Sequence record: PQ362703.1
Length of the DNA stretch: 64,000 nucleotides
Origin: Escherichia phage vB_EcoP_PW8
Strand: one strand, 5' to 3'
Shown here: positions 16,661-39,045 of the stretch, one piece after another
Position numbering within the stretch: position 1 is the first letter of the stretch
Layout: every line of letters begins with the position of its first letter
Notes under the pieces: model-generated
What the model saw: the letters and a program-made list of their open reading frames with translations, nothing else
Told to the model about the DNA's origin: nothing
Databases searched by the model: none
Program-made: the position numbers and the translations under genes

Positions 16661-16990
16661 ATGAAAACTTTACTTAAAGGTGTTGCTGTAGCTGCACTGA
16701 TAGCTTTGGTTCCAAATGCACAGGCAATTAAACCAGAACCAATTCTGGAAGGTGCTCAGGCTTACCTGGATGACACTCGTGATGCGTTCGGACAAGGATT
16801 CTTCATGGGCAGTATGATCTCTTACATCGAGAACACTAATAACTGTGTTCCTGAAGGTATTAAGTATTCAGTCATTCTGCCTAAGATTGCCAAAGTAGTT
16901 ATTTACGACTCTGCAATCCTCAAGATGAAGAATACATCTCAAATTGTTGTGTACTCAGTACACAAGGCATACCCCTGCACCAAATCTTAA
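16661..16990 (+). CDS. secreted/periplasmic small protein
   Basis: 109 aa with signal-peptide-like N-terminus (MKTLLKGVAVAALIALVPNAQA). Confidence 0.4.
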   Translation: MKTLLKGVAVAALIALVPNAQAIKPEPILEGAQAYLDDTRDAFGQGFFMGSMISYIENTNNCVPEGIKYSVILPKIAKVVIYDSAILKMKNTSQIVVYSVHKAYPCTKS

Positions 16991-17024
16991 TCAGTAATTC
17001 CATTAGCTTTAGGAGAGTAAGTAA

Positions 17025-17224
17025 ATGGCAAGCATCGACTCCTTGACTGTATGTAATTCACGTCAAGCTCGTAACTTTATTATCCGTGCCCTGAAAGCAG
17101 GTAACGTACCGTTCCTGACTTCATCACCAGGCATGGGTAAATCTGCAATTATTCGTTCTATTGCAGAAGAATTTGGTATGAAGCTGATAGACCATCGTCT
17201 GTCTACTTCTGCCCCGGAAGACCT
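17025..17224 (+). CDS. MoxR-like AAA+ ATPase, exon 1
   Basis: Contains Walker A (SSPGMGKSA). Frame stops 2 codons after the proposed 5' splice site at 17224. Confidence 0.55.
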
Positions 17225-18098
17225 TAACTAATAGGGCTTTGTGAGGGTGACCTCACATCGAAAGCTATCTAAATGGGGAAACTCCTACTATTACAGGGAA
17301 ACCATGATACACTCTGGTTTCCCAATAGAGGACAATCCCATGCTAAATATTAATGAAAGTTGGAAAGACATTGTTGGTTATGAAGGTTACTACGAAGTCT
17401 CTACGCATGGTCGTGTTAGAAATACCCATACAGGTATGATAAAGAACCAATGTGTACAGACTAGCGGCAAGTATCTACAAGTTAGTTTGTGGAAAGGCAA
17501 CAAAGAAAAAAGATGTTTAGTACATCGCTTAGTTGCTATAGCCTTCATTCCTAACCCCGAAGACAAGCCTCAAGTAAACCATTTAGACAAAAATGATAAG
17601 AACAACCATGTTCAAAATTTGGAATGGGTAACCATATCCGAGAATCATTTACATGCATTTGCTAATGGTAGAAAAGGCTCCAAATCCCGACTAGGTGAAA
17701 AAACTAGTAAAGCCTCTCAGTATCGATATGTGTACTGGGATACCAAAAGAGCTGTTTGGAAAGCATCTATAAAGATAGACGGCAAAACAGTAAACATTGG
17801 TAGATTCAATACTGACCTAGAAGCAGCTTTAGCCGCTGATGAGGCAATTGATTCCTGGGGCTGGGATAGAATTAAAAACTTTCAATAATTAAATGCCTAA
17901 CGACTATCGAAAACACGTAGTGATACGGAAGTGAGTAGAGTAGGGTGCAAGCCAATGGCACTCGAAAAGATAGCCACCCGGACAGGTAAAGCTGAGGGTG
18001 TTGATATAGTCTGGTCTGCGTAGTAATACGTAGCTGTATATGTCCAACTCGCATATACGGGTAGAGCCTTGCAAACTCTACTGAACATAACGTAGTGG
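17225..18098 (+). mobile_element. group I intron carrying an HNH homing endonuclease gene
   Basis: P-like (17271-17303, GGGGAAAC/CAGGGAAACC), Q-like (17334-17343 AATCCCATGC), R-like (17895-17909 GCCTAACGACTATCG) and S-like (18001-18014 TTGATATAGTCTGG) elements. Exon ACCU can pair with intron GGGU at 17245-17248. Last intron nucleotide is G at 18098. Splicing restores a DLLP motif. Confidence 0.6.
17340..17888 (+). CDS. intron-encoded HNH homing endonuclease
   Basis: Motifs WKDIVGYEGYYEVSTHGRVRN, HRLVAIAF...NHLDKNDKNNHVQNLEWVT and an AP2-like C-terminus. Start uncertain: ATG 17340 or 17304, or track start GTG 17241. Confidence 0.75.
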   Translation: MLNINESWKDIVGYEGYYEVSTHGRVRNTHTGMIKNQCVQTSGKYLQVSLWKGNKEKRCLVHRLVAIAFIPNPEDKPQVNHLDKNDKNNHVQNLEWVTISENHLHAFANGRKGSKSRLGEKTSKASQYRYVYWDTKRAVWKASIKIDGKTVNIGRFNTDLEAALAADEAIDSWGWDRIKNFQ

Positions 18099-18945
18099 TT
18101 TGCCATTCCGTAATGGTGACCGTGCAGAGTTTATTCCATTCGCTGACTTATTTCCCATTGAGGGAGACGAAGTACCCGAAGGTTATAATGGCTGGCTCCT
18201 GTTCCTTGATGAGTTCAACTCAGCTAGGAAAGAAGTGGTAGCTGCTGCATACAAACTGATTCTCGACCGTATGACTGGTCAGAAAAAACTTCATCCCAAT
18301 GTGATGATTGTTTGTGCTGGTAACAAAGCTACCGACCGTGCAATTGTTAACCCACTAGGTACTGCAATGCAGTCTCGTGTGGTTCACTTTGAAATGGAAC
18401 TTAACTTCGACATCTTCGTTGAAGACGTAATGATTCCACAACAATGGGATGAACGTCTGGTTGCATTTCTACATGCTAACCCTGGCTATCTGCACGACTT
18501 CGACCCTGCTCATAAGAACAAAACATTCTGTTGTCCTCGTACCTGGGACTTTGTTAACAAAGATCTCAAGAACCAACCAGAAGGTGCATTGCCTGACGAG
18601 GATTCCCTGTACTACAGTGGATTTGTTACACCAGGTAAGGCTGTAGAGTTTGTTCAGTTCACCCAGGTGTACAATCGTATCATTACGATCGAAAAGGTAG
18701 TCAAAGACCCATTGGGCTGTGCACTACCAGAAGATAACAACCTGTGCTGGGCTACCGTTAACCACTTGGCTAACAAAACTACTGAAGAGAACTTCGCTGA
18801 TGTTCTTCAGTACATTGAACGCTTTAAAACGTTCACTCATAAGATTCTGTACTTCCGTACAGTAGGCAGAGCATTGCCAGAACTTCAGGCTACCCCTGAA
18901 TGGCGTAAGGCTGCTGCTAATATCTCTCGTTACATTCACGGATAA
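18099..18945 (+). CDS. MoxR-like AAA+ ATPase, exon 2
   Basis: Begins LPFRNGD and contains Walker B (LLFLDEFN) about 45 residues after the exon 1 Walker A, then ...IVCAGN. Frame is open from 18091. Confidence 0.55.
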
Positions 18946-18949
18946 AACA

Positions 18950-20125
18950 ATGAACCAATTTCCTCAGCACACTCTTAGTGATGAACAACTCATGCGTGAG
19001 TATGACCGTATTCAAGCTCAGGCTTTCCTAGGACGCAGCGCAGCCTTCTTTGGTTCATTACTATGTAGTCTTAAATTCTCATGGAAACGTGGGGATTGCC
19101 CCACTGCATGTACGGATGGGATAGAACTCCATTTCAATCCTGATTTCTTTATCTGGATGTGTCCAGATGCAAGAGAAACAGTATTAATGCACGAACTATG
19201 GCATGTGGCATATCTACATGACATCCGTCGTGGAAGCCGTGACCCAGAAGTCTGGAACCAGGCATGTGACCACTTCATTAACCTTCAGTTAGAAGAGGAT
19301 GGTTATAAGTTCACTGGTATTGATGAAGGCATTTGCAAAGACCCCCAATATAAAGGATGGGTCGAAGAAGACATCTATGATGACCTGATGAAGAACCCTC
19401 AGAAAAGGCAAAAGCCGTCAGGGGGTGCTGGAGCAGGTCTTGCTGGCGACATGAAATCCCCCACTTCGGGGCAGTCCCAGGGTGCTGTCGTCAACAACGT
19501 AGTACGTGCAATGCAGAGCCAGAAGATGGCAGGTGGAACAATGCCTGGTAAGGGTGCTGGTCGTATGGAAGAGGTCATTACCCAATTCCTTAAACCAGTG
19601 GTTCCCTGGCAGGAAGTTCTGATGAATTTCTTTACCGACATTGATGACACTCATTATACGTGGGCCAGACCTAACCGTCGTTACACTGACATCTATCTAC
19701 CTTCCCTGGAAGATGATGAAGGGCGATTACGACACTTAGCCTACTTTGAGGATGTATCCGGTTCTATTAGTAGTGCTGACTCTCTGCGTTTTAACTCAGA
19801 GGTTGCCTACGTTAAGAGCCAGTTCAATCCTAAGAAGATGACCCTAATCACCTTCGATGATGTTATCCAAGAAGAGATAGACATCACTGAAGAAGATACT
19901 TTTGAGGAGATTAAGATTACTGGTCGTGGTGGTACAAACCTGGAACCAGTACGTGATTGGATTATTAAGAATAAGCCAACCGCTGCAATCATATTCTCTG
20001 ATATGTATGTTCGTCCAATGGAAGAACTACCATTTGATATCCCAATCATCTGGTGTGTTCTGAATAATCCTAATGCTACCGTACCTTTTGGGGAGGTAGT
20101 TCATATCCCTAAAGGAATGAAATAA
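18950..20125 (+). CDS. metallopeptidase-like / VWA-like protein, partner of the MoxR ATPase
   Basis: 391 aa with HExxH motif (HELWHVAYLH), directly downstream of the AAA+ ATPase gene. Confidence 0.5.
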   Translation: MNQFPQHTLSDEQLMREYDRIQAQAFLGRSAAFFGSLLCSLKFSWKRGDCPTACTDGIELHFNPDFFIWMCPDARETVLMHELWHVAYLHDIRRGSRDPEVWNQACDHFINLQLEEDGYKFTGIDEGICKDPQYKGWVEEDIYDDLMKNPQKRQKPSGGAGAGLAGDMKSPTSGQSQGAVVNNVVRAMQSQKMAGGTMPGKGAGRMEEVITQFLKPVVPWQEVLMNFFTDIDDTHYTWARPNRRYTDIYLPSLEDDEGRLRHLAYFEDVSGSISSADSLRFNSEVAYVKSQFNPKKMTLITFDDVIQEEIDITEEDTFEEIKITGRGGTNLEPVRDWIIKNKPTAAIIFSDMYVRPMEELPFDIPIIWCVLNNPNATVPFGEVVHIPKGMK

Positions 20126-35031: not shown

Positions 35032-35529
35032 ATGAAACAGAGGATTGCCCATGACAGGCTTTTACAGCTTGTTAGTTATGACCCTATTTCCGGAATTTTT
35101 ACTCGTAGGAATACTGGGAAGGTATCCGGTTACCTAATGAAGAGTGGCTACACTCAGCTCCGTGTGGATAGCGTGTTGTACTATGGGCATATCCTTGCAT
35201 GGTTCTATGTGCATGGCGTATGGCCTACGGATAGGATTGACCATAAGGACAATATACGCCATCACAACTGGATAGATAACCTCAGAGAAGCGACCCACAA
35301 GCAGAATAACCAGAGTGCTGTTTTATCTAAAACAAACACATCTGGATTTAAGGGGGTATCCTTTTCAAAGAATTTAGGTAAATACAGAGCAACTATTTGG
35401 GTTAACAGCAAACCAATTACATTAGGTTTCACAGATGACCCAAGAGAAGCTGCTGTTCTCTATGATGAAGCTGCTATAACTCATTATGGTGAGTTTGCTA
35501 AAACTAATAAGCAATTGGGACTGTTATGA
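35032..35529 (+). CDS. HNH homing endonuclease with AP2-like domain, paralog of the 13268 gene
   Basis: 165 aa. HILAWFYVHG...DHKDN...N, then SGFKGV and YGEFAKTNKQL, closely matching the 13268 protein. Confidence 0.8.
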   Translation: MKQRIAHDRLLQLVSYDPISGIFTRRNTGKVSGYLMKSGYTQLRVDSVLYYGHILAWFYVHGVWPTDRIDHKDNIRHHNWIDNLREATHKQNNQSAVLSKTNTSGFKGVSFSKNLGKYRATIWVNSKPITLGFTDDPREAAVLYDEAAITHYGEFAKTNKQLGLL

Positions 35530-38712: not shown

Positions 38713-39045
38713 ATGACCGAAGTAATTCCCAATGATATGAACACTCAGCTAATCCTGATTGCAGGATTCTCAGCGAGTGGTAAATCAGCATCACTGCGTA
38801 ACATCCGGAACCAGGAACGCTGGCTCTATCTGAATACTGAAGCAGGTAAACGTCTGCCTTTCCGTAACAAATTCAATACCTACAACATTGAAGACCCATA
38901 CCAGATTTGGGAAGCATTTGATGTTGCATCTCCTGGTGGAGAAATGGCAGATGATGTTGATGGTATCATTATTGACTCAGCAACCTTTATGATGGACATG
39001 CTGGAATCTCAGTATGTATTACCCTCTGCAAACACGCAAAAGGCT
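38713..39045 (+). CDS. P-loop ATPase (AAA_24/Sak4-like, tentative), exon 1
   Basis: Walker A (GFSASGKSA) and Walker B-like IIIDSATF. Proposed 5' splice site after U at 39045. Confidence 0.45.

Follow-up and report, generated by a model that had tools for sequence, protein, structure and literature searches.

Positions 17,025–18,945 of Escherichia phage vB_EcoP_PW8 (PQ362703.1; the window, i.e., the whole stretch analysed, comprises 64,000 nucleotides) raise the question of whether one ATPase or several separate proteins are encoded there. The Walker A motif (SPGMGKS) lies in an ORF that stops at 17231 (17025–17231), the Walker B motif (LLFLDE) lies in a separate ORF (18100–18945), and an HNH endonuclease gene sits between them, as an earlier note on this DNA had described. 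The central proposal of that note, a group I intron with an HNH homing endonuclease gene splitting an AAA+ ATPase gene, is supported by intron-less homologs, homology, and covariation. The 868-nt insert at 17225–18092 is very probably a T4 td/nrdB-type (IA2-like) group I intron, mobile and self-splicing, inside a gp24-type ATPase gene; the assignment draws on its absence from relatives, partial matches to RF00028, its helices, and their covariation. The exons, the insert with its helices and ORF, and the downstream partner gene all lie on the + strand.

Host gene and precise interruption

Judged from its sequence, 17025–18945 is the N4 gp24-type AAA+ ATPase gene of a Gamaleyavirus, interrupted by an intervening sequence. 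Exon 1 (17025–17224, from the ORF listing) provides codons 1–66 plus 2 nt and includes Walker A, and exon 2 (18093–18945) provides 1 nt plus codons 68–350 and the stop codon and includes Walker B. The insert between them is exactly what intron-less relatives lack. Megablast matched 58 phage records, and among the matches listed the insert was present only in two records of Shigella phage pSb-1, the others aligning with the two exons alone over a span ~870 nt shorter. In phage St11Ph5 the ATPase gene is one uninterrupted 1053-nt ORF, and removal of the insert (17224 joined to 18093) likewise yields a 1053-nt ORF encoding 350 aa, with a protein 98% identical to that of St11Ph5. A comparison with intron-less N4-like homologs had been recommended by the earlier note, and the 87-nt spliced junction was matched contiguously in 63 records. 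Global MAFFT alignment of the interrupted and uninterrupted genes misplaced the large gap, and the junction sequences were inspected directly instead: the insertion site reads CTTTCTGGCTTA in the intron-less allele of St11Ph5 or Bp4 and CTTAGTGGTTTG in the intron-bearing junction allele. The interruption is base-exact, and nothing is lost from the ATPase gene.

The exon 1 protein (aa 1–67) is identical to those of pSb-1 and St11Ph5, and exon 1 differs from its relatives by synonymous changes only. In exon 2, 56 synonymous codon changes stand against 7–10 non-synonymous ones, giving 60–65 synonymous versus 7–10 non-synonymous differences over both exons and indicating, at the level of codon comparison, that the ATPase function is retained and that both exons are under purifying selection. 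The Pfam AAA cut-off (21.2 bits) was passed by the spliced protein only, at 27.2 bits; AAA_5 reached 17.7 bits on the spliced protein (cut-off 22) and bpMoxR 15.6 bits on exon 1 alone (cut-off 27), while an NCBIfam search with the ATPase and HNH proteins gave no matches. The closest solved relative of the spliced ATPase is a midasin AAA domain (E=5.8e-4), and a MoxR-like annotation is carried by more distant phage homologs. Immediately downstream, a partner gene of the N4 gp25 type (18950–20125) encodes a DUF2201 metallopeptidase-like plus VWA-like protein (Pfam DUF2201_N, metallopeptidase-like, E=3.2e-56; DUF2201, VWA-like, E=1e-33), so that the VWA-domain partner of MoxR-type AAA+ ATPases is found in the adjacent gene. 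The designation of the ATPase as MoxR-like is plausible and weakly tested.

Predicted splice sites and guide sequence

The 5' splice site falls after U17224, where the earlier note had placed it. Based on Rfam alignment and a pairing check, P1 (17222–17236) is formed by CCU of the exon and UA of the intron (17222–17226) with the guide UAGGG (17232–17236), and the splice site is marked by a U17224·G17234 wobble, as is characteristic of group I P1 helices; the same layout is present in the introns of Klebsiella phage Pylas and Vibrio phage VCO139. The guide proposed earlier, GGGU at 17245–17248, pairs with exon ACCU on paper, but it belongs to one arm of the P2 hairpin UGUGAGG-GUGA-CCUCACA (17240–17257, arms 17240–46/17251–57), which was recovered in the minimum free energy (MFE) fold and shows covariation when set against P2 in the introns of Pylas, VCO139, pYD6-A, and KIL3.

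The 3' end needed correction. A 3' tail, CUGAACAUAACG, ends at G18092, and its terminal sequence GAACAUAAYG is homologous to annotated introns, which have conserved 3' ends of the GAAYAYAAYG type. The P10 5' strand ACUA (17227–17230) pairs with UAGU (18093–18096), the first four bases of exon 2, by 4/4 Watson-Crick pairs, and the insert therefore shows both the terminal G and the P10 of group I introns. The earlier note had ended the intron at G18098. A G does stand there, but the homologous 3' end, P10, and the intron-less genes all identify G18092 as terminal, so that the 3' splice site is 18092/18093 rather than 18098/18099 and the intron measures 868 instead of 874 nt. The proposed join of 17224 to 18099 does keep the frame (1047 nt), but it deletes a Ser-Gly pair retained by all close homologs; the Gly, two residues past DL, is kept even by distant ones. 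The junction motif is accordingly DLSGLP (EDLSGLPF from the 17224–18093 join) and not DLLP. The predicted spliced junction reads GAAGACCU/UAGUGGUUUG, and the product expected from RT-PCR would carry the junction CCGGAAGACCU/UAGUGGUUUGCC.

Splicing at the earlier boundaries is accordingly very improbable. What speaks for them is that ACCU could form a helix with GGGU that includes a U·G wobble, and that G18098 exists at the end of an in-frame join; these points are outweighed by the covarying P2 hairpin that occupies GGGU, the loss of the conserved Ser-Gly, and the homologous tail that stops at G18092. A P10-like pairing was also sought for a 3' exon starting at 18099 (UUUGCC), and none comparable was found.

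Ribozyme core

The helices of the 5' half were assigned from structure. The P3 5' strand GCUAUCU (17264–17270) pairs with AGAUAGC (17968–17974) across ~700 nt with 7/7 pairs, and compensatory changes occur in six related introns. P4 (17273–78/17336–41), obtained from folds and hand-aligned strands, encloses P5, P5a, and P5b (17283–17332). P6 (GC 17342–43/GC 17895–96) and P6a (17349–61/17877–89), found by duplex and MFE folds within 17342–17896, bring together both ends of the endonuclease ORF. Pairing is perfect in P1–P4 including the long-range P3, and P2, P3, and P4 covary across the six related introns. When the ORF-deleted intron was folded without constraints, P2–P6 (including P3), P7.2, P8, and P9 were recovered, with a z of about -5. 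BLAST of the 5' ribozyme half found no relative besides pSb-1, and the assignment of this half therefore rests on structure and on helices hand-aligned from related introns.

The 3' half matched ~300 phage records, including annotated split td, nrdB, and terminase genes. From alignment, pair counts, and pairing checks, the region 17902–18011 contains P7 (GACUAU 17902–07/AUAGUC 18006–11), P7.1 (17916–27), P7.2 (17943–63), the P3 3' strand (17968–74), and P8 (17975–18000), followed at 18016–18092 by P9 (18016–33), P9.1 (18036–58), P9.2 (18061–81), and the 3' tail. In an 11-sequence alignment, 95.3% of the positions of P7, P7.1, P7.2, P8, and P9 were paired versus 28–42% with slid partners, and 19 of the 28 pairs had changes on both sides; the observed values were reached by none of 500 shuffles. 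P7 is invariant and hence gives no covariation itself. P9.1 and P9.2 were kept outside the covariation count, their MAFFT columns being out of register among sequences; checked within the window only, both pair perfectly.

The insert thus displays the conserved group I core (P3–P9 with the P3/P7 pseudoknot and covariation) as well as the IA2 features, P7.1/P7.2, both of which covary, between P7 and the P3 3' strand and P9.1/P9.2 at the 3' end. The IA2 label follows the Michel-Westhof scheme. The P-, Q-, R-, and S-like stretches pointed out by the earlier note coincide with real core strands: the P-like stretch is the P4/P5 5' strands (17273–17304), the Q-like stretch is the P4 3' strand (17336–17341), the R-like stretch is J6/7 plus the P7 5' strand (17895–17907), and the S-like stretch is J8/7 plus the P7 3' strand (18001–18011).

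The suggested covariance-model search gave a divided result. At gathering thresholds, Rfam returned no intron over the whole window, only two tRNAs. The 549-nt ORF in P6 splits the RF00028 match, and E-value mode and control introns were therefore used. In this mode RF00028 matched both halves of the insert, at 17744–18033 (25.6 bits, E=3.4e-4) and 17219–17487 (13.9 bits), neither reaching the gathering score of 50 bits. Among the controls, the annotated, ORF-bearing nrdB intron of RB6 scored no better, at 27.9 bits, the pSb-1 copy 26.8 bits, and an ORF-less homologous intron in the KIL3 terminase gene 94.7 bits.

HNH endonuclease in the intron

The P6 loop carries a 182-aa ORF (17340–17888) for an I-HmuI-type HNH endonuclease with NUMOD4, HNH_3, and AP2-like regions, identified by Pfam, PDB, and PHROG searches. 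NUMOD4 (E=2.3e-13, 50.6 bits, cut-off 23.4) and HNH_3 (E=3.5e-8, 33.4 bits, cut-off 24.8) were recognised above their cut-offs, and AP2 (E=6.7e-7, 29.9 bits) fell under its cut-off of 33.3. Similarity to I-HmuI (PDB 1U3E) extends over 104 residues (E=2e-16), in keeping with an enzyme of this type, and PHROG HNH families were matched as well. The best start is ATG 17340, preceded by a Shine-Dalgarno sequence GAGGA (17328–17332) at a distance of 7 nt. GTG 17241 and ATG 17304 were considered as starts and rejected: the NUMOD4 and I-HmuI alignments begin 6–7 residues past ATG 17340. The likely annotated start in pSb-1 corresponds to ATG 17304. Since the Shine-Dalgarno sequence and AUG lie within strands of P5, P4, and P6, the ribozyme probably cannot fold while the endonuclease is being translated, and vice versa.

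The copy in phage pSb-1 and probable mobility

Shigella phage pSb-1 (NC_023589; gp62, gp63, gp65) carries an 868-nt intron at the same site, 98.7% identical to the one described here, and its gp63 HNH protein shows 98.9% identity. No copy besides that of pSb-1 was found in the phage collection or IMG/VR; when IMG/VR was scanned for exact matches to a 29-mer taken from the 5' half, one contig was returned, 98.7% identical over the intron. The host exons of pSb-1 differ from the present exons by ~8% (~92% identical), whereas the 204-nt 3' ribozyme half shows zero differences, and the sole ribozyme difference is located in P2 (17244, A/G), where the pair is preserved. In both intron-bearing genomes synonymous changes cluster within the first 9 nt of exon 2, and AGU replacing UCU at the exon 2 start creates the P10 pairing. 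A patchy distribution and a divergence far below that of the host gene would both fit ongoing homing among co-infecting Gamaleyaviruses. A second HNH insertion is present in the next gene of pSb-1 and is absent from the window.

GenBank annotates no intron at this place in pSb-1 and lists separate genes instead, one for a hypothetical protein, one for an HNH endonuclease, and one for an ATPase. Current records of both phages break the ATPase up into an orphan of 68 aa, an HNH gene, and a truncated ATPase, and the 68-aa piece even forms its own PHROG family, phrog_21479. The correct product would be a single 350-aa protein from spliced mRNA.

Proposed splicing and alternative explanations

The insert has a complete P1–P10 layout with the HNH gene in the P6 loop, and from its intact core and the purifying selection on both exons we infer that the intron splices. 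A free guanosine bound at P7 would attack after U17224, held in P1 by the G17234 wobble, P10 (ACUA 17227–30 with UAGU 18093–96) would align exon 2, and the 3'-OH of exon 1 would then attack after G18092. The ligated mRNA, GAC CU/U AGU GGU UUG, would encode the full 350-aa ATPase. By analogy with I-HmuI and other homing systems, the HNH enzyme may nick or cut intron-less alleles of related phages in mixed infections, and, as in intron homing, repair from the intron-bearing genome may copy the intron together with a short flanking exon stretch.

Two further readings keep the ribozyme-like sequence without splicing or discard it. It is improbable, though with a precedent in the same genus, that an intron-derived insertion no longer splices and that the ATPase consists of two cooperating polypeptides, a Walker A piece and a Walker B piece. 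In G7C-like phage 10Gb, an intron-like insertion in g39 is unspliced and the gene halves are translated separately, whereas the g16 intron of horse-derived G7C-like phages was found to be spliced by RT-PCR (bioRxiv 10.1101/542787); ribozyme-like appearance alone is therefore no proof of splicing. The exon 1 frame stops at TAA five bases into the insert, TTG 18100 opens the exon 2 frame, the pieces in pSb-1 are annotated as separate GenBank genes, and purifying selection on both halves would be predicted by a two-polypeptide arrangement too. However, the core helices, U·G wobble, terminal G, and P10 are all intact, the ribozyme parts are near-identical in two phages with an exon difference of 8%, and the AGU codon starting exon 2 fits a requirement for P10. 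Moreover, the bases upstream of TTG 18100, AACGUAGUGGU, contain no Shine-Dalgarno-like sequence, and a single AAA+ domain would be cut in two, with Walker A on one piece and Walker B on the other.

Least credible of all is the view that a free-standing HNH gene destroyed the ATPase, leaving a pseudogene with coincidental RNA structure. These phages commonly carry free-standing HNH genes, e.g., 35032–35529 in the window, and Rfam gave no match at the gathering score; against this, both exon frames are kept with almost exclusively synonymous differences, the base-exact interruption costs the gene nothing, and the ~320 nt of non-coding sequence flanking the HNH ORF adopt a covarying group I fold. 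A splicing intron with the boundaries 17225–18092 remains the preferred explanation.

Comparison with known introns

That phages carry group I introns with HNH genes is well known, also for the gp24-type gene family and the same genus, and no new question is opened by the present one, which adds one more mobile intron to the N4-like phages. For the orthologous gene, introns at other positions have already been described, as has an intron of G7C-like phages that is spliced. The g16 and g39 elements of those phages are likewise insertions of ~800 nt that carry homing endonuclease ORFs and lie in essential core genes within the same genus (bioRxiv 10.1101/542787), but they reside in different genes (RNA polymerase 2 subunit A and DNA polymerase).

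The T4-type IA2 introns (td, nrdB, and sunY, e.g., RB6 nrdB/I-TevIII and Dickeya phage JA29 td) share with the present intron the core sequences AACGACUAUC ... GAUAUAGUCUGGUCUGC ... GAACAUAAYG, the P7.1/P7.2 and P9.1/P9.2 extensions, an endonuclease ORF looped from the core, the U·G wobble at the 5' site, and the terminal G. They sit in nucleotide-metabolism genes, whereas the host gene here is an AAA+ ATPase; the JA29 td intron encodes a GIY-YIG endonuclease instead of an HNH enzyme of the I-HmuI type, and the 5' half of the present intron is too diverged from theirs for BLAST. I-HmuI itself, the HNH nicking endonuclease of Bacillus phage SPO1, aligns through its NUMOD4-like N-terminal region and HNH domain, the His and Asn residues of its motif are kept, and both enzymes are encoded by group I introns, but its C-terminal DNA-binding part differs from the AP2-like one found here.

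Closest in host gene are the introns in orthologous gp24-type genes of Klebsiella phage Pylas (annotated as 'ATPase split by intron'; after ~aa 119), Pseudoalteromonas phage pYD6-A (joined CDS; ~aa 215), and Vibrio phages JA1/VCO139 (PMC3670811; VCO139 site after ~aa 119), compared with aa 67 in the present gene. These inserts contain an HNH ORF and a related td-like ribozyme with the 5' layout UAAC.UAAUAGG, then P2, then P3, and the P8 loop CAGGUAAAGCUG is similar in Pylas and pYD6-A. The HNH proteins are ~35% identical where compared. Common descent is hinted at, though not established, by the 5' layout that these introns share with the present one and by the P8 loop motif that recurs in Pylas and pYD6-A. 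It is conceivable, if rather unlikely, that one td-like intron lineage with an I-HmuI-type HNH enzyme colonised at least three positions of the gp24-type ATPase gene in N4-like genera, in which case the element would have changed its site within one host gene, through reverse splicing or endonuclease retargeting, rather than arriving by independent invasions.

Identification of the interrupted ATPase gene and its intron boundaries

This region of the window matches genomes of Gamaleyavirus, the G7C-like, N4-like podoviruses from Escherichia and Shigella within the Schitoviridae, with Shigella phage pSb-1 as the best megablast match over 16900-19100 (94.4%). The gene at 17025-18945 is a homolog of N4 gp24, an AAA+ ATPase, and is directly followed by a DUF2201 metallopeptidase-like/VWA-like gene (18950-20125, plus strand). 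As the earlier note had described, Walker A (SPGMGKS) and Walker B (LLFLDE) lie on separate plus-strand ORFs, 17025-17231 and 18100-18945, with a plus-strand ORF for an HNH protein between them. Among 58 phage records matched by megablast, the intervening DNA is present in those of pSb-1 alone (two records); the remaining records among the matches listed align over the exons only, with a span about 870 nt shorter. Comparison of the joined protein with intron-less homologs bore out a single gene rather than two, since the ATPase gene of St11Ph5 is one continuous ORF of 1053 nt (350 aa). Core helices, covariation and intron-less homologs agree on a group I intron with an HNH gene splitting the ATPase gene; the feature in the earlier note is real and its interpretation correct in kind, with the 3' splice site, guide, length and junction peptide corrected.

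Intron-less genes read GAA GAC CTT TCT GGC TTA CCA at this site, encoding EDLSGLP. The window reads GAAGACCT (to 17224) followed by TAACTAATAGGGC at the 5' boundary, and CTGAACATAACG (to 18092) followed by TAGTGGTTTGCCA at the 3' boundary. Joining 17224 to 18093 gives GAC CTT AGT GGT TTG and the same EDLSGLP, replacing the DLLP proposed previously. The spliced length is 200 + 853 = 1053 nt, the protein is 98% identical to that of St11Ph5 over its full length, and the 87-nt spliced junction finds a contiguous match in 63 phage records. P1 is formed by CCUUA (17222-26) and UAGGG (17232-36), whose U17224·G17234 wobble sets the 5' splice site after 17224; the guide is therefore UAGGG, and the GGGU at 17245-48 assigned that role before forms an arm of P2. 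Alignment of the 3' tail CUGAACAUAACG to annotated intron ends (GAACAUAAUG in JA29 td, GAACAUAACG in RB6 nrdB and GAACACAACG in KIL3) places the terminal G at 18092. In addition, P10 joins ACUA (17227-30) to UAGU (18093-96) by four Watson-Crick pairs; the pairing check found nothing comparable for UUUGCC, the exon start of the earlier note. This alignment and P10 displace the 3' splice site from 18098/18099, with G18098 as last base, and shorten the intron from 874 to 868 nt, the length also of the pSb-1 copy.

Structure and covariation of the ribozyme core

Unconstrained folding of the ORF-deleted intron (z about -5 against shuffles) recovered P2 (17240-46/17251-57), P3 (17264-70/17968-74), P4 (17273-78/17336-41), P5, P5a and P5b (17283-17332), P6 and P6a (17342-61/17877-96), P7.2 (17943-63), P8 (17975-18000) and P9 (18016-33). 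The pseudoknotted P7 pairs GACUAU (17902-07) perfectly with AUAGUC (18006-11), and P7.1, P9.1 and P9.2 also pair perfectly in the window. The P7.1/P7.2 and P9.1/P9.2 extensions group the intron with the T4 td/nrdB type, which we take to be IA2 in the Michel-Westhof scheme.

Covariation was counted over P7, P7.1, P7.2, P8 and P9 on an alignment of 11 homologous 3' halves, where 95.3% of positions were paired versus 28–42% with partners slid by 1–3 columns; both sides had changed in 19 of 28 pairs, and none of 500 shuffles attained any observed measure. With hand-aligned strands for the 5' half, P1, P2, P3, P4 and P8 are paired in all six related introns with differing sequences, P3 being GCUAUCU/AGAUAGC in the PW8 intron, GCUACU/AGUAGC in Klebsiella phage Pylas, GUUACC/GGUAAC in Pseudoalteromonas phage pYD6-A, CUCCAU/GUGGAG in JA29 and CCUUG/CAAGG in KIL3.

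The covariance-model search suggested earlier was divided: Rfam at gathering thresholds gave no match at the insert, but RF00028, its group I intron model, matched both ends in E-value mode, at 17744-18033 (25.6 bits, E=3.4e-4; GAUAUAGUCU and P9 parts with high posterior probability) and 17219-17487 (13.9 bits; P1, P3, P4 and P5 aligned). Low scores are expected because a 549-nt ORF sits in a loop; the annotated, ORF-containing nrdB/I-TevIII intron of RB6 scored 27.9 bits, the pSb-1 copy 26.8 bits and the ORF-less KIL3 homolog in a terminase gene 94.7 bits. By BLAST, the 204-nt 3' half matched about 300 phage records, and the loci inspected were thymidylate synthase in Dickeya JA29 (a split gene containing a GIY-YIG ORF), a joined terminase CDS in KIL3, nrdB with I-TevIII in RB6, the region of the portal gene in Vibrio F98 (containing an HNH ORF), and td in Proteus phiP4-3 and the N4-like Vibrio phage pVa5, whose intron is already published (PMC5746245).

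The HNH endonuclease gene and mobility

The 182-aa product of the ORF at 17340-17888 has NUMOD4, HNH_3 and AP2-like domains (Pfam). Among solved structures it is related only to I-HmuI (1U3E, E=2e-16), the nicking HNH enzyme that is encoded by an intron in Bacillus phage SPO1, and its closest relatives among phages include many HNH genes from other N4-like phages (35–45% identity). ATG 17340 is the likely start, since homology begins 6–7 residues later and GAGGA lies 7 nt upstream. This Shine-Dalgarno sequence shares bases with the 3' strand of P5, the AUG runs from the 3' strand of P4 into P6, and P6a pairs about 13 nt at either end of the ORF region; core folding and ORF translation therefore probably compete. 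Elsewhere, 35032-35529 encodes 165 aa with HNH_3 (E=2.8e-9); lying between other genes, it is apparently a free-standing gene for an HNH endonuclease.

Relative to the pSb-1 copy, 11 of 868 intron positions differ (1.3%): one change lies in P2 and preserves its pair, the other ten fall within the ORF, and the 3' ribozyme half is identical. In the exons, 87 of 1053 positions are changed (about 8%). Exon 2 begins AGT GGT (T/C)TG in both intron-bearing genomes; St11Ph5 and Bp4, the two genomes compared that lack the intron, have TCT GGC TTA there, and the spliced junction matches intron-less records at no more than 95.4%. These changes fit selection for P10 pairing, co-conversion of flanking markers in homing, or a combination of the two.

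Splicing and alternative explanations

Exon codons differ from those of pSb-1 and St11Ph5 by 60–65 synonymous and 7–10 non-synonymous changes, none of the latter in exon 1. Moreover, only the spliced protein passes the Pfam AAA cut-off, over aa 31-146 and across the junction at aa 67. Together these argue that a full-length ATPase would be made, and hence that the intron splices; that the gene is a destroyed pseudogene is extremely improbable. The rival to be taken seriously is a relic that does not splice, with an ATPase produced in two pieces; the insertion reported in g39 of the G7C-like phage 10Gb offers a precedent (bioRxiv 10.1101/542787). Against it, the ribozyme core is intact and conserved, TTG 18100 lacks an upstream ribosome-binding site, and the break would divide a single AAA+ domain, which leaves it unlikely. 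A splicing intron with the exact boundaries of the earlier note is less probable still: the join 17224-18099 does keep the frame, but loses a Ser-Gly whose Gly is retained even in homologs 33–56% identical over aligned pieces (DLLGFP in Pylas, TINGFP in VCO139).

Other interrupted genes

A second group I intron splits a Sak4-like/AAA_24 ssDNA-annealing protein gene (38714-40261; insert ~39047-39790, about 796 nt). RF00028 matches it at 39563-39790 (43.9 bits, E=1.6e-9) and 39096-39201 (30.1 bits), core motifs AACGACTA and GATATAGTC lie at 39678 and 39760, and its 163-aa ORF (39181-39672) has no Pfam match. It is carried by SP5M, PhAPEC7 and Bas96 and is missing from the remaining records among the matches listed, pSb-1 included, so the two PW8 introns differ in distribution. 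Two neighbouring tRNA genes lie at 43680-43834 on the plus strand (40.7 and 64.8 bits against RF00005).

The gp25 homolog (DUF2201/VWA-like), whole in the window at 18950-20125, is seemingly fragmented in pSb-1 (L001 3596-4057) and Bp4 (L003 2852-3762) beside CDSs annotated as HNH endonucleases, and the Bp4 ATPase gene has a frame break at about aa 185/186. In PHROGs, phrog_21479 (68 residues, unknown function) matches exon 1 end to end (ORF 17025-17231; E=5.4e-34), and phrog_16335 (ATPase family) matches aa 1-187 only, consistent with a Bp4-type truncated ATPase. Spurious protein families thus seem to have arisen from introns and frame breaks that went unrecognised.

Comparison with known introns

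Phages are a classic setting for group I introns that bear homing endonuclease genes. The PW8 intron adds one more to a well-known kind and is of modest interest, its chief use being annotation repair; a literature search of open-access papers and preprints found no paper on this particular intron. Splicing has been demonstrated for the g16 intron of G7C-like phages (bioRxiv 10.1101/542787), and HNH genes split the gp24, DNA polymerase and gp43 homologs of JA1/VCO139 (PMC3670811). GenBank has 'ATPase split by intron' for Pylas and a joined gp24-like CDS for pYD6-A. Their insertions fall at about aa 119 and aa 215 of the ATPase, unlike the aa 67 site of PW8, which is shared solely by pSb-1, with no intron annotation there. 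The introns of Pylas (locus coordinates 905-1760), pYD6-A (~1220-2080) and VCO139 (930-1630) have a 5' layout in common with that of PW8 (UAAC.UAAUAGG, P2, then P3), and the P8 loop motif CAGGUAAAGCUG recurs in Pylas and pYD6-A, which hints that a single intron lineage may occupy several sites of the ATPase gene across genera.
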